64,000 nt of DNA from Gemmatimonadaceae bacterium (GCA_035544915.1 DASZZO010000053.1:373-64372), one strand, 5' to 3'. Shown: positions 8,663 to 32,951, counted from the first letter of the stretch. The notes: a model not told the origin generated them from the letters alone. Translations and numbers: made by a program.

Positions 8663-9696
8663 TCCGCCAATCCTTCCCACAGGCCGTTGAGGTACGCGGC
8701 GCCAAGGGCGCGATCGTAGAGGCCATAACCGGGCCGTGCTGTCTCACCCCAGATCGTGCGTCCGTGATCGGGGCGCGCGGGGCCCGTGAAACCCGTGTCG
8801 CGCAGCGCCCGCAGCACCTCACGCATGTTCACGCGGCCAAAGCGCGATGGGTGCGGTGTCTCGTGAAACTCGTGCGCCCCCGTGACGGCGACATTCCGGC
8901 AGTGTGCGAAGGTGATGCGGCCCATGGCGCCGAACTTCCGCGCCATTGCAGGCAGATCGTTCTCAGGGAGTGCGCCGAGTGAGCCGGTGCAGAAGGTGAT
9001 GCCATTCGCGGGGCTGTCGACGAGTCCGATGAGCCGGTCGAGATCGGCCCCGCGACGAATGATCCGCGGCAGGCCGAAGATCGGCCATGGTGGATCGTCG
9101 GGATGGATCGCCATGCGCACGCCGGCACGCTCGGCGACGGGAACCACGCGCTCGAGAAAATAGGCGAGGTTGTGCCAGAGCGCTTCGCCGTCAACGTCGC
9201 GGTATGCCGTGAGCAGCGCGTTCAGCTCCTTCGCTCCATATGCGGTGGCCCAGCCGGGGAGATCGCCGGTGCCTCGCGTGATATCCATCCTGGCAAGTGC
9301 GGCATCACTGTATGCGAGGGCCGTCGAGCCGTCAGGGAGCGGCCTGGCAAGATCAGTGCGCATCCAGTCGAACACGGGCATGAAGTTGTAGCAGAGCACC
9401 GGGATGCCAAGCGCACCCATCGCCCGCACCGTCTCGCAGTAGGTCTCGATGTACCGGTCGCGGGTGGGCCGCCCGAGCTTGATATCCTCGTGCAGCGGGA
9501 TGCTCTCGACGACAGAGAAGCGCAGCCCCGCGGTTTCGATTTGGGCCTTAAGCCGGGCGAGAGCGTCCCGCGACCATGCAGTCCCCACGGGAACGTCGTG
9601 GAGTGCGCTGACGATTCCCTCGACGCCGGGAATCTGCCGGATGCGCGCGAGCGGAATTGCGTCGGAGGGACCGAACCAGCGAAAGGTCAGGAACAC
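8659..9696 (-). CDS. uxuA: Mannonate dehydratase
   Basis: [37 protein letters not shown]...[15 protein letters not shown] are UxuA hallmarks. GTG start at 9696 overlaps the kdgK stop. The longer 567-aa ORF in the track runs into kdgK and is not used. Confidence 0.85.
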
Positions 9697-10796: not shown

Positions 10797-11440
10797 GTTC
10801 GCAACCGCCGTCCCGCAGCGACTGCATCGACAAACGCGCGCGCGCTCGACGTGAGACCGCCCGTCTGCCCCTGCTTGACCGACACGACATTCACCAGCGC
10901 CGAGCCCACGCTCACCGCCGCCGCACCTGCGGCGATCCACTCCGGTGCGTTCGCGATCGTCACGCCGCCCGACGGCACGAGCCGCAGAAAGGGCATCGGC
11001 GTGAGCAAGTCACGCAGGTAGCGCGAGCCGATCGCCGACGAAGGAAAGACCTTCACTAGCGCGGCGCCGGCGCGATGCGCCTCGAGAATCTCTGTCGGCG
11101 TGAAGGCGCCGGGTACGCAGATGATGTCATGGTCGCGGCAGACACCAATGACGTCGGCATCGAACGTGGGGCTCACAATGAAATGAGCGCCGGCATCGAT
11201 CGCGCTTTGCGCGCTCGCGGCGTCCAGCACGGTACCCGCGCCCACGATGCAACCGTGCTCTCCACACGCCGCGACAAGCGCGGCGATCGTCTCCAGGGCA
11301 CCCGGAGTCGTGAGCGTGATCTCAACCGCGTTCACGCCTCCGGCCGCGAGCGCCTGCGTTGCCGCCAGCAGGTCAAGGCGCTCGCCGAGCCGAACGACGG
11401 CGATGACTCCTGTCTCCAGGATGCGATCGAGAGTGGTCAT
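10793..11440 (-). CDS. eda: KDPG / 4-hydroxy-2-oxoglutarate aldolase
   Basis: GVIAVVRL..GGVNAVEITLTTPGALE..GAGTVL..GAHFIVSP..PGAFTPTEI..VKVFP over 215 aa is a classic Eda signature. Confidence 0.9.
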   Translation of the reverse strand: MTTLDRILETGVIAVVRLGERLDLLAATQALAAGGVNAVEITLTTPGALETIAALVAACGEHGCIVGAGTVLDAASAQSAIDAGAHFIVSPTFDADVIGVCRDHDIICVPGAFTPTEILEAHRAGAALVKVFPSSAIGSRYLRDLLTPMPFLRLVPSGGVTIANAPEWIAAGAAAVSVGSALVNVVSVKQGQTGGLTSSARAFVDAVAAGRRLRT

Positions 11441-12321
11441 GCGAAGGGTGGGAGGAGGAGTGCGTCCGGGTATTTCGTCAAGTCGACCGCGCCGTGGCTG
11501 CCGGGGTCCTCGAGCGGCGGATCAAACACCTCCGCGTGCCGCGCGACGATCGCGGGCCATAGCCCCGCTGCCTCGGGCAGATCCAGCGTGAACTCGGATT
11601 TGAGCGCGGAGACGAACTCTTCCGCACACTCGAGCAGGCGTTCCGTCCTGCCATCTGGTCTGGCCCAGCGCAGCACTCGGCCCCGCAGGGTGGTCACGCC
11701 CGCCGGCGTGTGGCGTTGCGCAACGAGGTTCTGCATGAACGTCGACTGCTCGGATGTCTGCAGATACGCGCACCGCGCCGCGAGCACTGACTCGTCGGCT
11801 GCGCGCAGGGTGAAGTCGAAAGTCTGCTCGCCGCCCTGCACGTGGTTGTGAAGGCGCCACCAGTCTGCATCGGCCTGCGTCAACTCGAAGGTGAAGCCGT
11901 GAGAGCTGAACTCGCCCGGCACGATGCGAATGGGGTCGATCGGCCCGTCGCCGAAGCCGACGTCGGCGAGCCAGGTGCCTTCGTCGAGATCGACTCTGAG
12001 CACGAGGTGATTGCCTATGCCCGCATCGCCCTTCCGATCACGACCTACGGCTCCTGCGCAGCGAGTGACCCGGAAACCGAGTTCCTCGAGGGCCCAGCCG
12101 AGCAGGCCGTTCATTTCATAACACCAGCCGCCCCGGCCGTGCCTGACGATTTTGTCGAAGATTGGCGCCGGGCTGAGGCCGACAGGTCGGCCAAGCTGGA
12201 CGTCGAGATTCTCGTACGGGATGGTAAGGAGGTGGGCGCGGTGGATGGCGCGGAGCGACTCGAAGGTGGGTCGCATGGGGTGGGTGAGCCCGATACGACG
12301 GAGGTAATCGCGAACAAGCAT
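11437..12321 (-). CDS. Arylamine N-acetyltransferase (NAT family)
   Basis: MLVRDYLRRIGL..LRAIHRAHLLTIPYENLDV..GRGGWCYEMNGL..NHLVLRV..WLADVGFGD, including the catalytic Cys motif GGWCYE. ATG 12321. The upstream part of the 349-aa ORF is only translated repeat DNA. The stop overlaps the eda ATG (ATGA). Confidence 0.85.
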   Translation of the reverse strand: MLVRDYLRRIGLTHPMRPTFESLRAIHRAHLLTIPYENLDVQLGRPVGLSPAPIFDKIVRHGRGGWCYEMNGLLGWALEELGFRVTRCAGAVGRDRKGDAGIGNHLVLRVDLDEGTWLADVGFGDGPIDPIRIVPGEFSSHGFTFELTQADADWWRLHNHVQGGEQTFDFTLRAADESVLAARCAYLQTSEQSTFMQNLVAQRHTPAGVTTLRGRVLRWARPDGRTERLLECAEEFVSALKSEFTLDLPEAAGLWPAIVARHAEVFDPPLEDPGSHGAVDLTKYPDALLLPPFA

Positions 12322-12340
12322 AGCGGAGAGTCTACTGCAG

Positions 12341-12460
12341 TCGAGGGTTTGGAGTCGAGGGTTTGGAGTCGAGGGTTTGGAGTCGAGGGGTTTGGAGTCG
12401 AGGGTTTGGAGTCGAGGGTTTGGAGTCGAGGGTCGAGAGTTGAGGCATGAGAGTTGAAAG
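12341..12460. repeat. Tandem array of six 14-15 bp units TCGAGGGTTTGGAG, followed by a GAGAGTTGAG-type arm
   Basis: Direct reading: units at 12341, 12355, 12369, 12383 (15 nt), 12398 and 12412, then TCGAGGGTCGAGAGTTGAGGCATGAGAGTTGAAAG. Confidence 0.9.
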
Positions 12461-12475
12461 CCGCGTCGGATGACA

Positions 12476-12504
12476 TTGCGTTGCAAAGTGCTTTTTGCTA
12501 CACT
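12476..12504 (+). promoter_or_regulatory. Candidate sigma-70-type promoter (TTGCGT-N17-TACACT)
   Basis: -35-like TTGCGT at 12476-12481, a 17-nt spacer, and -10-like TACACT at 12499-12504, about 38 nt upstream of ATG 12542. The promoter consensus of this lineage is unknown. Confidence 0.25.
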
Positions 12505-12541: not shown

Positions 12542-12829
12542 ATGAACGAATCACCCATGAAGCAGCCGAGCGCCCTCTTGCCAGTGGCAATGTCCGTCGC
12601 CGCCCTGGCCCTCGTGCTCGTGCACGCCGCGATGTACGGCGTTGTCCATGAGGCCGACGAGGGGACGCCGGCCCATCTGTTCCAGATACTCATGGCCGGA
12701 CAGGTGCCGATCGTAATGTATTTCGTGGCGAAGTGGGTGCCGCGCGCCCCGAGGAAGGCTTTGGCGGTGCTTGCATTGCAAGCTGCAGCGGCGATCGCAG
12801 CGTTTACGTCGGTCTACTTTTTGACCTGA
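12542..12829 (+). CDS. Small hypothetical membrane protein (about 3 TM segments)
   Basis: 95-aa ORF with hydrophobic stretches (LLPVAMSVAALALVLV, ILMAGQVPIVMYFVA, ALAVLALQAAAAIAAF) and high GC3. No recognisable family. Confidence 0.5.
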   Translation: MNESPMKQPSALLPVAMSVAALALVLVHAAMYGVVHEADEGTPAHLFQILMAGQVPIVMYFVAKWVPRAPRKALAVLALQAAAAIAAFTSVYFLT

Positions 12830-13049
12830 GTCGAGAACAGGCGAGGGTTGAGGGTCGAGAGTCTTGAGTTGGGGGTCTGGACCGTTTGGACTACTCCCGG
12901 TCGTCTCCCGGAACCGACGCGTTCGGGAGGGTAGCAAAAACAGAGTTGAGAGTTGAGAGTTGAGAGTCGGGGGAGATCCCGCAACTCGCATCTCTGGACG
13001 CGCGACTCTCGACCCCCAACTCTCAACCCTCGACTCCAACCTCTCGACT
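12828..13049. repeat. Composite GAGAGTTGAG-type inverted-repeat element without ORF cargo
   Basis: G-rich arms at 12828-12875 and 12941-12973, a remnant motif CAACTCGCATCTC at 12982-12994, and a C-rich arm at 13005-13049 (ACTCTCGACCCCCAACTCTCAACCCTCGACTCC...). It fills the whole spacer between the stop at 12829 and the ligD ATG at 13056. Confidence 0.8.
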
Positions 13050-13055
13050 GTTTCA

Positions 13056-14768
13056 ATGCCTCCCCTCGAGACGTACCGGCGCAAGCGGGATTTTTCTGCG
13101 ACGGCCGAACCACGGGGCGCTGCCCTGCGCCCCGCTACGCCTGGATCCCTCCGCTTCGTCATCCAGAAACACGCGGCGTCGCACCTGCACTTCGATCTCC
13201 GGCTGGAACTCGACGGCGTCATGAAGAGCTGGGCCGTGCCGAAGGGGCCGAGCATCGACCCGCAGGTCAAGCGACTCGCCATGCAGGTAGAGGATCACCC
13301 GATCGAGTACAACCGCTTCGAGGGCACCATCCCCGAGGGCGAATATGGCGGCGGTACCGTCATGATCTGGGATCGCGGGACGTATGAGCCGCTCGAGGGT
13401 GGACTCGACGAGCTGCGCGAGGCATTCAAGAAGGGGACCATCAAGTTCCTCCTGCACGGTGAACGGTTGCACGGCTCATGGGCGCTGGTGCGCATGAATC
13501 GGGGCGCCGGCCGCCAGTGGCTCCTCATCAAGCATCGCGACCGCTACGCGCGGACCGGAGGCAACATCGTCGGCCGCGTGCTGACTTCCGTGGCGACCCA
13601 ACGCACCATGAAAAGCATCGCGGGCGAGGAGCGCGCACGGGCTCGCAGCGCCGTGAAGACCAGTGAGCGGCGCGCGCCCACCCGCACGACCCCGACGCGC
13701 GTCATCCCCAGGCTTGAACCCATGCTCGCCCGGCTCGGAACCTCATTGCCCGAGGGCAAAGGCTGGACGTTCGAGCCCAAGTATGACGGTATTCGTGTGC
13801 TCGCCTTTGCGGATGGCGATGCCGTAAGCCTGGTGACCCGGAATCAGCTGGACAAGGCATCACAGTTTCCCGACATCGCCGGCGCGCTCACGGCGCTTTC
13901 CCGGAAAAAGCGTCGCCCGTTCGTGCTCGATGGGGAGATCGTCGCCTACGCCGGACGAGTGCTCGGTCGCTTTCAGGAGCTGCAGGAACGCATTCACGAA
14001 ACCAATTCCGCGAAGATCGCGGGTCACATCCGGAACAGCCCTGCGGCGCTGATCGCCTTCGACCTCCTGATGGAAGGCGTCGTTTCATATGTGAAGGAGC
14101 CGCTGGCAACGCGCCGCGCCACCCTCGAGAAACTCTTCGCCCGCCAGCGTTCGCCTGCTCTGCGCCTCGGCGTCTCGATCGAGGGGGGCGGCGATCGACT
14201 CCTGGAGAAGGCTACGAAGGAAGGCTGGGAAGGCATCATGGCGAAGCGCCTCGACGCGCCGTATCGCACGGGAAAACGGTCGGATGCCTGGCTCAAGCTC
14301 AAGCTGGAGGCGCGGCAGGAGTTCGTCGTAGGCGGCTGGACCGAGCCACGGAGATCGCGCGAGCACATCGGATCCCTTCTCCTCGGCTACTGGAAACGCG
14401 GCAAGCTGATCTATGCCGGGCACACCGGTGCAGGATTCTCGCGCCGCACGCTGGCCGACCTGGCGGCGCGCCTGGCTCCATTGGAACGCAAGACGTCGGC
14501 CTTCGAGACCGAGCCGCGCCCCAACGCCCCTGCGCATTGGACGAGACCCGAGGTCGTGGTCGAGATCAAGTTCAATGAATGGACCGCCGGTGGCCGCCTC
14601 CGGCGGCCGGTCTTCCTGGGTGTGCGCGATGACAAGGACGCGCGCACGGTTGTTCGCGAAGGCCCCGCGAGGCAGCGGCAACAGCGCCGCGTGCGGCCAG
14701 CTGCGACCGCCCGCCGCACGGTGCAAGCCACCGCGACCAGCCGCGCGACGGCGAAAGGCGCGGCATGA
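13056..14768 (+). CDS. ligD: DNA ligase D, 3'-phosphoesterase + ATP-dependent ligase domains
   Basis: The PE domain is LRFVIQKHAASHLHFDLRLE..SWAVPKGPS..HPIEY..GEYGGG. The ligase domain carries the adenylation motif EPKYDGIRV. ATG 13056; upstream ORF residues are repeat DNA. Confidence 0.9.
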   Translation: MPPLETYRRKRDFSATAEPRGAALRPATPGSLRFVIQKHAASHLHFDLRLELDGVMKSWAVPKGPSIDPQVKRLAMQVEDHPIEYNRFEGTIPEGEYGGGTVMIWDRGTYEPLEGGLDELREAFKKGTIKFLLHGERLHGSWALVRMNRGAGRQWLLIKHRDRYARTGGNIVGRVLTSVATQRTMKSIAGEERARARSAVKTSERRAPTRTTPTRVIPRLEPMLARLGTSLPEGKGWTFEPKYDGIRVLAFADGDAVSLVTRNQLDKASQFPDIAGALTALSRKKRRPFVLDGEIVAYAGRVLGRFQELQERIHETNSAKIAGHIRNSPAALIAFDLLMEGVVSYVKEPLATRRATLEKLFARQRSPALRLGVSIEGGGDRLLEKATKEGWEGIMAKRLDAPYRTGKRSDAWLKLKLEARQEFVVGGWTEPRRSREHIGSLLLGYWKRGKLIYAGHTGAGFSRRTLADLAARLAPLERKTSAFETEPRPNAPAHWTRPEVVVEIKFNEWTAGGRLRRPVFLGVRDDKDARTVVREGPARQRQQRRVRPAATARRTVQATATSRATAKGAA

Positions 14769-24499: not shown

Positions 24500-25159
24500 C
24501 TACACCAGCCAACCATCCTTGAGATTGATGATCCGGTTGCCGTACTTCGCGTTCTCCTCGGAGTGCGTGACCTGCACGATGGTTGTGCCGGCGGTGTTCA
24601 AGCGCTTGAACAGCTCCATGATTTCGCGCCCCTGCGCCGAGTGCAGGTTGCCCGTCGGCTCGTCGGCAAGGAGCAGGAGCGGTTCGTGAATCAGCGCGCG
24701 CGCCACCGCCACCAGTTGCTGCTGCCCTCCGGAGAGCTGCGCAGGATACAGGTCTTTCTTGGCGACCATTCCGAAGCGGTCGAGGGTGTCGGCCACGATC
24801 GACTGGCGTTCGGTCTTCTTGATATCCCGGTAGGACAGCGGGATGTCGAGGTTCTCGGCGACGGTGAGATCGTCGAGGAGGTGATACTGCTGAAAGACGA
24901 ACCCGACATACTTCTTGTGCAACGCCACGCGCCGCTTGGTGTCGAGCTTGTGCACGGCGTTTTCGAGCAGGTCGTATTCGCCCGTCCATGCGCCGTCGAG
25001 CATGCCGAGTACGGCGAGCAGGGTGGACTTTCCGGCACCCGACGGGCCCATCACCGTCACGAACTCACCCTGCTTGATGTCGAGGGTGATGCGGCGGAGG
25101 ACAAAAGTCTGGCCGCCGGCAATTGGGTAACTCTTTTCGATGTTTCTCAGGGAAATCAT
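24500..25159 (-). CDS. ABC transporter ATP-binding protein (MacB/LolD-type)
   Basis: Walker A GPSGAGKSTLL, signature LSGGQQQ, Walker [15 protein letters not shown] 25159 directly abuts the TAA of the preceding ORF. Confidence 0.9.
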   Translation of the reverse strand: MISLRNIEKSYPIAGGQTFVLRRITLDIKQGEFVTVMGPSGAGKSTLLAVLGMLDGAWTGEYDLLENAVHKLDTKRRVALHKKYVGFVFQQYHLLDDLTVAENLDIPLSYRDIKKTERQSIVADTLDRFGMVAKKDLYPAQLSGGQQQLVAVARALIHEPLLLLADEPTGNLHSAQGREIMELFKRLNTAGTTIVQVTHSEENAKYGNRIINLKDGWLV

Positions 25160-25588
25160 TTACGGGCAGTCGAGAGTTGAGAGTCGAGAGTTGAGAGTTC
25201 TGGAGACGGGAGACTTGAGTTTTGAGATGTGAGTTGGGCGCCTTGTGCTTCGCATCAGCGCCATGAGCATCCGCTGGATCTCGTCGAGGTTCGCGGTGAC
25301 GCGGTGGAGGTCGGACGAAGGAATGAATCCGAGGTCGCCGGCAATGAGCAAATGACTCTCGAGCTCCCGTGATGAGGCGATCGCGATCTGGTACAGACGG
25401 GCCTGGTCCCCGGAGGTCTTGCGCCCCGAACTCTCCGCGATGTTTGCGGGAATCGAAACTGCCGCCCTTTGAATCTGAGATGAAAGGCCCTGAAGCTCGG
25501 CGGCCGGGAACGTCCTGGTGAGCCGGTATGCAACCACAGCGAGCGCACGCGCTCGCTGCCAGACAATCAACTCCTTGAAGTCAGCCAC
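25160..25588 (-). CDS. Four-helix-bundle protein (23S rRNA intervening-sequence protein / Avd family)
   Basis: ADFKELIVWQRARALAVVAYRLTRTFP..LSSQIQRAAVSIPANIAES.G.....ARLYQIAIAS.RELESHLLIAGDLGFI is the canonical family pattern. GTG 25588 is preferred, with TTG 25618 as the alternative. The last ~12 codons are encoded by the repeat arm. Confidence 0.85.
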   Translation of the reverse strand: MADFKELIVWQRARALAVVAYRLTRTFPAAELQGLSSQIQRAAVSIPANIAESSGRKTSGDQARLYQIAIASSRELESHLLIAGDLGFIPSSDLHRVTANLDEIQRMLMALMRSTRRPTHISKLKSPVSRTLNSRLSTLDCP

Positions 25589-25759
25589 CGCGTCACCATG
25601 AATGGAGAGGTGACTCAATCTGGCATTTGGGAAACGTACCGGCGGACCGTTGCGTCGCCAGACGTCTCAAAGGAATGCCGCTCGAAACTCTCACCTCGCA
25701 ACCCTGAACTCCCGTCCCCCCAGCTCTCACCGCCGGGCTCTCAACTCTCGTCTGCCCCC
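25160..25759 (-). mobile_element. Inverted-repeat-bracketed four-helix-bundle cassette (IVS-like / MITE-like, putative)
   Basis: The arm at 25164-25219 and the arm at 25703-25758 are near reverse complements; 19 of the outermost 20 nt match. The element exactly fills the spacer between the ADOP stop (25759-61) and the ATPase ATG (25159). Confidence 0.5.
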
Positions 25760-28161
25760 TATTCCGTTCTCAATGCGACCACCGGATCCACCCGCGCCGC
25801 CCGGCGCGCGGGCAGATAGCAGGCGACCAGGGCGACAACCGCCAGCATCAATGGGACCGCGATGAACGTGAGTGGGTCGGTGGCAGGCACGCCGAACAGC
25901 TGCTTCCGCAAAAGTTGTCCGGCGCCCCAGGACCCGAAGAGACCGATGACGGTCGCAACGGCGATCACGCGGGCACCGCCGCCAAGCAGCAGTCGCACCA
26001 CCTGGACATGCCGCGCGCCGAGCGCCATGCGGATTCCGACTTCTCGCGTGCGCTGCAGCAGGACAAACGACATCACGCCGTACACGCCCACCAGGGCGAG
26101 CACCAGGGCGAGCAGCGCGAATGCCCCCGTGAGAACCAGCGTGAAGCGCGGCAGCGCTGTCTGTCGGCGCAGGAAGGCGGTCATGGGCTGCACGCGCCAC
26201 ACGGGCTGGTCGCGGTCCACCGACCAGATCGCTGCGCGCACGGATTTCGCCAGGGTGGCCGGATCGCGGTCCGTGCGCACGACGAAGCTGTTGAACGCCC
26301 CCGCGGCCTGCGATGTCGGCTGGTAGAGCTGCGCGCTTGGCGGATCGCCGAGCGCCTGTTGCGTGATGGTCCCTACGACGCCCACCACGGTCACCCAATC
26401 CGGCTGCGGCGCTCCCAACAGCTTGAGCCGCTTGCCGAGCCCCGATTTTCCCGGCCACTCGCGACGTACGAACTCCTCGCTGACGATGGCCACGTGCCGT
26501 GTCTCAGGCTTGTCAGTCGCGTTGAAGTCGCGCCCTTCGAGAAAGCGTATACGGAGCGCGGAGAAAAATCCGTCGGATACGGTGTTCTGCAGCGCCGACG
26601 AGGGCACCACAGCCGGCGCCGCGCCCTCGCGTTCGTAGGGAACGACGCCAAAGTTGCCGCTCAGCGGCACGGAGCGCACCAGCGCGGCCGCCCGCACGCC
26701 CGGCACGCGGCGAACCTCGTCCAGTGCGCGAGTGAGAAACTGGGTGATCTCCTCTGGCGTCTGATACTTCGATGCCGGCAGCCTGAACTCGCCGCTCAGC
26801 AGGTTGCTCGTGTCGAAACCGGGGTCGACGTGCTGGAGCGCCGCCAGACTCCGCGCGAGCAGACCCGCTCCGACAAGAAGGACCACACAGACCGCGAGCT
26901 GCGCGGTCATCAGTACGGTGCGGACATCCACCCGGCGTCGCGCGCGCCCGTCGCCGGAACGCATATTGAGCGCCTCCTTGAGGTCGGGCCGCGCTGCAGA
27001 CAGCGCCGGCACGAGGCCGGCCACGAGTCCCGCGCCAATCGTCACGGCCAGCGCGAACAGCAGCACTCGCATATCGAGCGTGACCGCGCCGAAGGCACCG
27101 AGCCCGCCCGGGACCATCGCAACGAGCGTGTCGAGCGACCAGCCGGCCAGCACGAGCCCTGCCACGCAGCCGAGCGCGGCGAGCACGAGGCTCTCAGTCA
27201 GGAGCTGACGAATGAGCCGCGAGCGGCCGGCCCCGAGTGCGGCGCGCAGTGAAAGTTCACGACGGCGGCCGGTTGCGCGCACGAGCTGGAGATTCGTGAG
27301 GTTGGCGCACGCGATCAGGAGCACGATGCCCACCGCGGCGAAAATAGTCAGCAGCGGATCGCGGTTTCCGGCGACAGTGTCCCTGAGGGATACGACGGTC
27401 GCGCCGATGCCCGCGTTCGCGGCGGGATACTCCGTCGCGAGCTCGCCGGCGATGCCCGAAAGATCGCGCCGGGCCTCCGCGAGCGACACGCCCGGCTTGA
27501 GGCGGCCCCAGGCCCATACATTCTTCGCGTTGCGGACGTACCATGACGCACCCGGCGCCGTGGGAAGTGGCAACCAGGCATCCACCGGCGCGAGCGGATC
27601 GCGAAACTCCTTCACGGTCACGCCGATCACCTGGCGCGGCCGGCCGTCGAGCACCAGTGTCCGTCCCACGATGCTCGAGTCGCCGCCGAACCGCGTGGTC
27701 CACGCAGCCCACGAGAGCACAGTCACGTCAGGCGCCGTCCCCTGTGCGGTCTCCTCAGGCCGGAAGAGCCGGCCGAGCGCGGCGCGGGCGCCGAGAACCG
27801 AGAGTGTGCTCGCCTCGACGTAGGCCCCCGACACCCGGTCAGGCGCGTCGCGTCCGGTGAGGCTCACGCTCTGCTGCCGCTCGACTCCGATGCTGGCGAA
27901 CGTCCGGCTGCGGGCGCGAAAATCCTCGATGTCGGGGATCGAGAGCAATCGTCGCTCGGCCCCGCGCTCCGCCCAGAGCATCACCAGGCGGTCGGCCTCC
28001 GGGTACGGGAGCGGACGCAGGAGCACGGCGTCGATCACGCTGAAGATCGCGGTGTTCGCTCCGATGCCAAGCGCAAGCGTGAGCACGGCGGCAAGCGTGA
28101 AGCCGGGGCTCCGGCGCAGGGAACGAAGGGAGAAGCGGAGATCCCTCAGGAAGTGGTCCAA
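25759..28161 (-). CDS. ADOP-family ABC permease (duplicated MacB/FtsX-like domains)
   Basis: The N-terminus [59 protein letters not shown] is the ADOP signature. 800 aa with two MacB_PCD+FtsX modules. Apparent TTG start. Confidence 0.9.
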
Positions 28162-28168
28162 AGGAGAG

Positions 28169-28366
28169 CCGTCGAGAGTTTGGAGGCGAGAGTTGGGAGT
28201 TGGGGGATGAGAGTCGAGAGTTGAGAGTTGAGAGTTCCAACTCGCAGTCCAAAGTCCCCGGAGTCCGGTCCGGCGTCGAGAGGCCTCGCGATCAGCAACA
28301 CCTGAACTCTCAACCCTCGACTCTCGACCCCCAAACTCTCAACGCCCGACCCTCAACTCTCGACGG
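28169..28366. repeat. Cargo-less GAGAGTTGAG-type inverted-repeat element (two ~66-nt arms, ~64-nt loop)
   Basis: The termini CCGTCGAGAGTT (28169-28180) and AACTCTCGACGG (28355-28366) are perfect complements, and the arms are about 85% complementary by eye. The loop begins with the remnant CAACTCGCA (28238-28246). Confidence 0.85.
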
Positions 28367-28368
28367 CC

Positions 28369-29082
28369 TTAGTGCGCCCCTGCGCCTGCCATCGCCTGCT
28401 CATCCACGACCCGCCCGTCGAACAGATTGATGCTGCGGTCGGCGTGGAGCGCGTAACGGGGATCGTGCGTCACCATGCAGATCGTGGCGCCGTTCCGGTT
28501 GAGCTCGCGCAGCAGTTCCATCACCGACTCGCCGTTGACGGAGTCGAGGTTTCCCGTGGGCTCGTCGGCGAGGAGGATTGCGGGATCGCCCGCCACCGCC
28601 CGGGCGACGGCCACGCGCTGTTGCTGGCCGCCGGAGAGCTGCGCGGGATAGTGCTTGGCGCGGTGCGACATCCCGACGCGCTCGAGCGCGGCGTGCACCC
28701 GCTCCTTGCGCTCGGTCGCGCTCATGCCGCGATAGGTGAGCGGCAGCTCCACGTTCTCATAGACGGTGAGATCGCCGATCAGGTTGAATGCCTGGAAGAT
28801 GAATCCGATCTGGCGGTTTCTCACGCGCGCACGATCGGCGGCGTCGAGGCCGGCGACGGGGCGGCCGTCGAGGAGATACTCACCATCGCTCGCCGTGTCG
28901 AGCAAGCCGAGGATCGAGAGCAATGTGGTCTTGCCGCAGCCCGACGGTCCGGAAATGGCGACATACTCGCCCTGCTTGATCTCGAGGTGCACGTCCGCAA
29001 GCGCGTGCGTCTCGACCTCGTCCGTGAGAAAGACCTTTTTGATGCCCTGCAAGCGGATGAGCGGCTCGCCGTTTGTCGCCAT
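28369..29082 (-). CDS. ABC transporter ATP-binding protein (MacB-type)
   Basis: Walker [13 protein letters not shown], signature [14 protein letters not shown], Walker [13 protein letters not shown]. Confidence 0.9.
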
Positions 29083-31535: not shown

Positions 31536-31609
31536 GCGCGAGTAGCTCAGCTGGATAGAGCGTCGGCCTCCGGAGCCGAAGGTCGTGGGTTCGAATCCCG
31601 CCTCGCGCA
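31536..31609 (+). tRNA. tRNA-Arg (anticodon CCG)
   Basis: Manual cloverleaf: acceptor GCGCGAG/CTCGCGC, D arm GCTC-AGCTGGATA-GAGC, anticodon arm TCGGC-CTCCGGA-GCCGA, T arm GTGGG-TTCGAAT-CCCGC, discriminator A. CCA is not encoded. Confidence 0.9.
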
Positions 31610-32902: not shown

Positions 32903-32920
32903 CGAGGGTCGAGAGTTGAG
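32903..32920. repeat. Solo GAGGGTCGAGAGTTGAG motif copy
   Basis: CGAGGGTCGAGAGTTGAG lies 7 nt after the rho stop. The same word occurs in the arms at 12426-12445 and 12848-12862. Confidence 0.7.
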
Positions 32921-32951
32921 CGGCGGGAGCCAGGAGGCACGGGGGAGACTG

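Follow-up and report, generated by a model that had tools for sequence, protein, structure and literature searches.

[quoted passage not shown] In Xanthomonas, heptamers have been described as G-quadruplex repeats with 70-75 convergent inverted pairs per genome; these pairs are conserved in position, variable in length between species and mostly transcribed (Rehm et al., PMC4692102). In the 5'-UTR of H. influenzae hmw1A, a heptamer-repeat arm is part of a long hairpin that is cut by RNase III, which raises expression. The repeat number sets the expression level of hmw1A, and changes in repeat number need both the RNA hairpin and RNase III (PMC12721329). More generally, heptanucleotide repeats have been known since 2007 as the most over-represented long simple repeats in bacteria (as cited in PMC4679880 and PMC4692102).

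We compared these systems with a palindromic element, E3, that lies in a 64,000-nt stretch of DNA from a Gemmatimonadaceae bacterium (the window; positions are counted from its first letter). The features of the window that are needed here are listed below, with the arms of each minus-strand element named as they are read on the mRNA strand.

12335-12461 (+), solo G-rich array of the heptamer family, 14-nt period, starts with CAGTCGAGGG
12830-13050 (+), E1, third family copy, ORF-less
24500-25159 (-), second ABC ATP-binding gene (ATPase2), start directly behind the 4HB stop
25160-25588 (-), four-helix-bundle (4HB) gene, PF05635 / TIGR02436, GTG start
25163-25240 (-), E2 3' arm, C-rich, overlaps the end of the 4HB ORF
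25680-25759 (-), E2 5' arm, right behind the permease stop, unit order as in the E3 5' arm
25759-28161 (-), ADOP-family duplicated permease (TIGR03434), TTG start at 28161
28168-28237 (-), E3 3' arm, C-rich, terminal motif CTCTCGACGG
28238-28300 (-), E3 loop, 63-64 nt, contains a small internal hairpin
28301-28368 (-), E3 5' arm, begins right behind the ATPase1 stop codon
28369-29082 (-), ABC transporter ATP-binding gene (ATPase1), stop TAA at 28369-28371
31536-31609, tRNA gene, sole Rfam match of the window

E3 is an imperfect palindrome of ~200 nt (28168-28367) that occupies the whole spacer from the ATPase1 stop to the permease start, which is 207 nt long in the window. An earlier note on this DNA had described near-complementary arms with perfect termini that fill the stop-to-start spacer, and our analysis agreed with this description. 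The arms extend over 28168-28237 and 28301-28367/28368, and their 12-nt termini, CCGTCGAGAGTT and AACTCTCGACGG, are perfectly complementary. The stem starts 1 nt past the ATPase1 TAA and ends 6 nt before the permease TTG, and the terminal motif CTCTCGACGG ends 7 nt before it. A stable fold was predicted on both strands. The minimum free energy was -124.7 kcal/mol (z -8.6) on the minus strand, which is the mRNA strand and the coding strand of the flanking genes, and -118.0 kcal/mol (z -9.9) on the plus strand; folding was near-equal on the two strands, and none of 200 shuffles matched the folding energy of E3. The outer stem comprises 62-64 pairs, of which 4-5 are G.U pairs.

Both arms are built of the heptamer unit GAGRGTY (as written on the G-rich strand), with 8-9 units readable per arm. 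On the mRNA strand, the 5' arm reads GGCCGTC GAGAGTT GAGGGTC GGGCGTT GAGAGTT TGGGGGTC GAGAGTC GAGGGTT GAGAGTT CAGG, and the 3' arm is its mirror, the odd central G5 unit included. Direct-repeat families within the arms are spaced by 14-21 nt. On either strand of E3 it is the G-rich arm that is read first, which makes this a property of the locus that is independent of the reading direction. The 63-nt loop contains no ORF and has no similarity to the 4HB gene; a 22-mer of the loop gave 0 matches in a metagenome scan, and no homologue of the loop was present in 1.85 Mb of fetched loci. No Shine-Dalgarno (SD) sequence was found in the E3 spacer ahead of the permease TTG, and a scan for promoters and terminators returned nothing at E3. 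At the gathering score, the tRNA was the only Rfam match in the whole window and E3 matched no family. An independent Logan assembly (L298) contains E3 and both of its flanks at 100% identity, and E3 is therefore not an assembly artefact.

E3 has relatives inside the window. The word GAGAGTTGAGAGT, with at most 2 mismatches, occurs 24 times compared to 0.97 occurrences expected by chance. The 24 matches are confined to four repeat loci and one further place, at 32904-32923, which has two units only. E2 (25160-25759) is the cargo-bearing copy, in which arms of ~75 nt surround a 142-aa 4HB gene, and it folds like E3, with a long stem formed by the terminal inverted repeats. The encoded protein matches PF05635 (E 1.7e-32) as well as TIGR02436, and among solved structures it is closest to 2GSC (XCC0516 of X. 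campestris). The 3' arm of E2 encodes the C-terminal tail of the 4HB protein, and the 4HB TAA abuts the ATPase2 ATG. E1 is nested, with an outer stem (12836-12877 / 13011-13050) around an inner heptamer hairpin (12941-13010), and fills the spacer between a small membrane-protein ORF (TGA at 12827-12829) and a LigD-like gene (ATG at 13056). The arms of E1, E2 and E3 follow a common plan of a terminal C[AC]GTC (CNGTC), four units, a G5 unit and 1-4 further units, and the elements start 0-6 nt past a stop codon and end 5-7 nt before a start codon. The window holds these three copies in 64 kb, with related arms and unrelated loops.

Arm similarity was evaluated against a control in which the order of the heptamer units was permuted 1000 times. 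The E3 and E2 5' arms share the order of variant units, with a score of 59 compared to 30.6 +/- 4.8 for the permutations, none of which reached the observed score. The E3 5' arm scored 60 against the E1 arm (permutation mean 42.4; reached in 9 of 1000), and the remaining E3-E2 arm pairings were weaker or not significant. Since the unit order agrees beyond the permutations, the E3 and E2 arms are homologous, with the best match co-oriented. The earlier note is thus upheld in that E3 and the arms flanking the 4HB gene form one repeat family.

The solo array at 12335-12461 consists of ~7 copies of GGAGTCGAGGGTTT and opens with the family terminal motif CAGTCGAGGG. No convincing C-rich partner of this array was found. 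The array gives the minus-strand ORF at 11437-12486 a spurious N-terminal extension. The words CAACTCRCA and CNGTCGAGRG also occur elsewhere in the window (5059, 5117, 19098, 36527 and others), and these occurrences were rejected as further copies; the three that were inspected (5059, 5117 and 36527) lie in ordinary-looking sequence without repeats and look like chance matches.

The closest relative of the locus is found on contigs L081 and L082, where HlyD is 94%, ATPase1 99.6% and ADOP 85% identical to the window. The ATPase-ADOP spacer of L081 is 81 nt long and reads TAG GAGAGTC GAGAGTC GAGGGTC GACG ... CGCCGACCCTCGAC TGAGGTTTCTTC ATG, with heptamers as in E3, a short stem and then an SD (GAGG) and the ATG. 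Nucleotide alignment of the window with L081 covers the ATPase gene, reaches 22 nt into the 5' arm and stops there, and the junctions differ by ~126 nt in units, loop and 3' arm. The shared heptamers indicate that the common ancestor of L081 and the window lineage had a heptamer hairpin at this junction, and the alignment running into the arm points to inheritance in place with gain and loss of units rather than to a fresh insertion. The operon can do without the large stem, since L081 has a short hairpin with an ordinary SD. The earlier note had raised a short spacer or an ORF-bearing copy, or else an identical spacer, at the junction in close relatives; in L081 the spacer is short and holds a short heptamer hairpin. 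In L084, which is more distantly related, the junction has direct repeats of 11 nt and no heptamers. The closest ADOP homologues in the genome collection (56% identity, Gemmatimonadaceae) are not syntenic and so are uninformative for the junction, and P0006 and P0007, which are tandem ADOP arrays with tight spacers, are not orthologous to the locus.

L081 and a further relative, L208, carry an additional permease, ADOP2. In a comparison of 25759-25826 with L208:2224-2291 and L081:4353-4378, the final ~67 nt of the window permease align with the end of ADOP2 of the close relative, and the rest of the gene is ADOP1. ADOP2 was probably lost from the window lineage when the 3' ends of ADOP1 and ADOP2 recombined; loss through the hairpins was ruled out, as the breakpoint is within the ADOP1/ADOP2 homology. 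At the other end of the gene, the first ~6 permease codons (28144-28161, compared with L081:1976-1993 and L081:4386-4403) are closer to the ADOP2 start of the relative (MDNFLKDLRF...) than to the start of the orthologue ADOP1 (MVILLQDLRY...), and the 5' end of the permease may have been exchanged along with the hairpin.

The E2-type cargo unit upstream of ATPase2 is kept in L208 (4HB 88% identical), L205 (62%) and L209 (68%). The two arms have co-varied in these three relatives, and the stop codon of the 4HB gene abuts or overlaps the start of ATPase2, as would be expected if the two genes were translationally coupled. The 4HB reading frame continues through the C-rich 3' arm as a low-complexity tail (...TLNSRLSTLDCP) in the window (25160-25240) and in L205 (L205:1846-1923), L208 (L208:2836-2913) and L209 (L209:3272-3352). 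In L209:2039-4008, ATPase1 is followed by the 4HB hairpin cassette and then by ATPase2, with no permease between them.

The association between 4HB genes and repeat-armed hairpins is broad. A profile-guided scan yielded 80 4HB-gene loci (L210-L289) from Bacteroidota, Acidobacteriota, Planctomycetota, Verrucomicrobiota, Patescibacteria, Clostridia, Proteobacteria, one archaeon and others, and 76 of these were evaluable. A gene was taken as enclosed when inverted repeats scoring at least 36 lay around the ORF. The 4HB ORF was enclosed in 63 of the 76 loci (83%), compared to 2/76 composition controls and 3/58 ADOP genes at the same score. The dominant arm period in the 63 loci was 7 nt in 50 and 8 nt in 13, the unit differing by lineage, and in 57 of them G exceeded C in the 5' arm. 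The start of the 5' arm was no more than 25 nt from the stop codon of a co-directional ORF upstream in about three quarters of the loci. GGGAATC arrays enclose the X. campestris homologue of XCC0516 (L292:1100-1600), which occupies the accB-accC spacer; the 3' arm there extends to the accC ATG. In the literature searched, a link between S23p and heptamers was found in the Coxiella paper alone and for that one element only, and the general link between PF05635 and 7-nt-periodic arms appears not to have been described there.

A scan for four GAGRGTY units returned more than 120 loci from many phyla, most of which are arrays that start just behind a stop codon. Ten of these loci are hairpins (L103, L122, L125, L129, L138, L156, L166, L179, L192 and L194), all with the G-rich arm first. 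With E1, E2 and E3 included, the G-rich arm is the 5' arm, on both strands, in 13/13 GAGRGTY hairpins; one idea is that this polarity avoids exposing a C-rich Rho-loading site. Searches for 4HB with tblastn and phmmer in 80 ADOP loci and 120 heptamer loci found a single gene, with no array next to it, so that the arrays by far outnumber the cargo. The G5-unit architecture was found by metagenome scan at one unrelated locus, in two samples. Tandem ADOP spacers of Acidobacteriota (L024:6430-6900 and 9300-9480; L016:3790-4010) hold heptamer hairpins with other units, namely GAGGATC, AGAAACC/GGAACCC and ATTTGAC, and two truncated ADOP N-terminal fragments in Acidobacteriota end in heptamer arrays.

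How these elements relate to described systems depends on the feature considered. E2 is like the S23p-type 23S IVSs of Coxiella burnetii and Leptospira, in which a promoterless PF05635 ORF is enclosed by a long stem of terminal inverted repeats; these IVSs have variable-number heptamers at their 5' end, are transcribed within the host RNA and also exist without an ORF (PMC4990558). In contrast to the IVSs, the window elements lie in mRNA intercistronic spacers and not in 23S rRNA helices. E3 has the long stem of an IVS but no PF05635 ORF, which is present in its sister E2, and it sits between two protein-coding genes in a window in which Rfam detected no rRNA. The E3 arms are ~66 nt long and consist almost entirely of heptamers, compared to 28 bp in the Coxiella IVS, and cleavage by RNase III is, for E3, a prediction. 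With the heptameric intergenic repeats of Xanthomonas and Nostoc, E3 shares G-rich 7-nt arrays, a location near the end of the upstream ORF and inverted pairs (PMC4692102), and it has all of the tested features of the Xanthomonas-type inverted pairs, which are the 7-nt arms, convergent G-first placement and length variability. The XCC0516 homologue, a 4HB gene, sits inside a Xanthomonas-type heptamer pair, and PMC4692102 treats the repeats as G-quadruplex motifs, without connection to 4HB genes. Unlike in that reading, the GAGRGTY unit has few G-runs and is unlikely to form a quadruplex. The hmw1A hairpin is like E3 in that it is long, lies close upstream of a gene and has an arm made of a heptamer array, but it has one SSR arm only, places the pyrimidine-rich arm first, lies in a 5'-UTR behind a promoter and has no 4HB relative (PMC12721329).

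E3 is also like REP/BIME elements and MITEs, which are short, structured, repeated intergenic palindromes, some of them mRNA stabilisers or processing sites. REPs are units of 20-40 nt mobilised by RAYT transposases, and MITEs have target duplications and transposase-bearing parents. In contrast, E3 has 66-nt arms of 7-nt periodicity, and neither class is built of tandem heptamers; no RAYT transposase was found among the genes adjacent to E3. The cargo of E2 belongs to the same four-helix-bundle superfamily as Avd of diversity-generating retroelements (PMC10053308). No reverse transcriptase and no template/variable repeat pair were found among the genes examined next to the element, and E3, unlike Avd loci, encodes nothing. 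E3 is thus not a strict IVS, MITE, REP, intrinsic terminator or Rfam family; its arms are, as judged from their unit order, homologous to the arms of an IVS-like 4HB cassette.

E3 belongs, without an ORF of its own, to a family of palindromes that lie between cistrons and have arms of 7-nt units; on balance, we lean slightly towards E3 being transcribed, cut by RNase III and acting as a stem that gates translation. The cargo-bearing form of this family encloses a promoterless 4HB gene (S23p / PF05635). E3 was inherited at the ATPase-permease junction, where the close relative keeps a short version, and differs from that version by heptamer units gained, a new loop and a new 3' arm that replaced the SD region. 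Since no promoter- or terminator-like site was found at E3, it should belong to a polycistronic RNA, and we propose that it is transcribed within the HlyD-ATPase-ADOP operon mRNA, where it would form a stem of ~62 bp. The base of the stem would set the ATPase stop beside the permease TTG and sequester the permease initiation region, as the last ~13 nt before the TTG are predicted to pair with the first nucleotides behind the ATPase stop. A 62-bp stem is long enough for RNase III, and by analogy with Coxiella and H. influenzae we infer that the E3 stem is cleaved by this enzyme. Initiation of the permease would need either processing of the stem or opening of its base by a ribosome terminating on the ATPase gene. 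Such processing or opening would set the amount of permease relative to the ATPase, with the number of units as a tunable parameter. The juxtaposition of stop and start at the base of the stem may be the reason why such elements are tolerated exactly there. We count in favour of this proposal that the element occupies a conserved place with differing length (81 nt in L081 and 207 nt in the window). The fold and placement of E3, the common plan of the three window copies, the cargo unit kept in L205, L208 and L209, the wide association with 4HB genes and the Coxiella, H. influenzae and Xanthomonas precedents are counted in its favour as well. Counted against it are the extra 126 nt, for which it does not account, a loop that is unrelated to anything else, the near-equal folding of both strands, the lack of a wobble signature and the short stem that suffices in L081.

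A serious rival is a purely DNA-level origin, in which arrays grow by replication slippage and intrastrand template switching keeps the arms alike. E3 would then be a neutral or selfish by-product, with a functionless RNA that is tolerated where stop and start stay juxtaposed. Slippage has been proposed for heptamer SSRs as the most over-represented long SSR class in bacteria (as cited in PMC4679880 and PMC4692102). Length has changed fast between relatives whose ATPase proteins are 99.6% identical, and solo arrays exist, both at 12335-12461 and at most of the loci in the GAGRGTY scan. The mismatches between the arms of the 63 4HB hairpins point the same way: 92 were sense-compatible transitions, 136 antisense-compatible transitions and 270 transversions, the last thus being common, and no excess of sense-strand G.U wobble was detected in these hairpins, with a slight trend in the opposite direction (p = 0.004). 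There is therefore no sequence signature of selection for RNA pairing in the arms, and a DNA-level process could keep them symmetrical. However, the strict polarity (13/13 GAGRGTY and 57/63 4HB hairpins), the precise placement between the stop and start of co-directional genes, and the reading of the 4HB ORF through the 3' arm to a stop abutting the next start in four genomes suggest constraint, and slippage alone leaves the new 3' arm and loop unaccounted for. We regard a by-product without function as somewhat unlikely.

The earlier note had interpreted E3 as an ORF-less derivative of the same element as E2, that is, a MITE-like copy that lost its interior and was transposed in inverted orientation into the spacer. 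Family membership is supported, but the internal deletion, the inversion and the MITE status are not, and we consider this origin very unlikely. The three window elements do share the terminal motif C[AC]GTCGAGAG ... CTCTCGAC[GT]G and the arm architecture, and ORF-less copies outnumber the single ORF-bearing one. The shared words on which the deletion was based are also present, as the loop opens with CAACTCGCA at 28238 and CCTGAACTC is found at 28301 and 25703, but both CAACTCRCA and CCTGAACTC are heptamer-unit variants. Alignment of whole E3 with E2 gave scores of 57 and 52 in the two orientations compared to a shuffle mean of 20, with the signal coming from the arms alone. In contrast, the E3 loop against the E2 interior was not significant in either orientation (score 20, shuffle mean 17; 42 of 300 shuffles reached 20), and the loop had no match in the metagenome scan or the fetched loci. 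The best and sole strongly significant arm match is that of 5' arm to 5' arm, which is co-oriented and speaks against an inversion, although the orientation of the element is only weakly determinable because it is a palindrome. No target-site duplication was found at E3 (flanks ...GGAGAG / element / CCTTAGTG...), E1 or E2, and no transposase is present. Moreover, the L081 junction already holds a shorter hairpin of the same heptamers, with homology reaching into the arm. To our knowledge, the 4HB protein is not known as a transposase.

Less likely still is that E3 reduces the permease mRNA compared to the ATPase mRNA, either as an internal terminator or attenuator or as a hairpin that stabilises the 3' end. 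A long stable hairpin immediately behind a stop codon and an expected ATPase:ADOP ratio of 2:1 would fit such a role, and in Clostridia the stoichiometry of ABC transporter operons is reported to be set by internal terminators and stabilising stem-loops (PMC9045158, PMC4423207). However, there is no U-tract behind the E3 stem (no T-run), where a consensus terminator scan was also empty, and the same type of element lies upstream of the essential co-transcribed accC in Xanthomonas and in rRNA, where termination would be harmful.

The least likely of the alternatives is a recombination site or cassette boundary, either attC-like or a hotspot of homologous recombination, for gain and loss of ADOP permeases. 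Two co-oriented arm copies flank the permease, the L209 arrangement ATPase1-[arm-4HB-arm]-ATPase2 without a permease is as expected from recombination between the two 5' arms, and in Acidobacteriota both tandem ADOP spacers and truncated ADOP 5' fragments are associated with heptamer hairpins or arrays. However, the E3 5' arm did not match the L209 5' arm significantly (97/1000 permutations), the sole mappable deletion, the loss of ADOP2, went via ADOP1/ADOP2 homology and not via the hairpins, the arm organisation is by eye not attC-like, and no integrase was noticed, without a systematic search. A G-quadruplex reading of E3 was ruled out by eye, with one G5 run per arm.

We know of no accepted reason for the excess of heptanucleotide repeats in bacteria, nor of a function of the very large PF05635 four-helix-bundle family outside diversity-generating retroelements. 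The data presented here tie together heptanucleotide repeats, PF05635 proteins and rRNA intervening sequences, with empty hairpins of the same architecture beside cargo-bearing ones. For annotation, they account for the odd low-complexity C-terminal tails of 4HB proteins, for spurious spacer ORFs and for assembly breaks at such places. Beyond the translation-gating stem that we favour for E3, a broader and more speculative idea, which we hold to be unlikely as it stands, is that 4HB proteins and heptamer-armed hairpins are the halves of one widespread system. Its promoterless cassette would colonise transcribed mRNA and rRNA spacers, and ORF-less hairpins such as E3 would be non-autonomous members acted on in trans by a pentameric 4HB protein that binds, maintains or extends the arms, possibly with RNase III. 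If true, such a system would explain the origin of the 23S IVSs, the role of PF05635 outside diversity-generating retroelements, and the bacterial heptanucleotide excess together with its G-first polarity.
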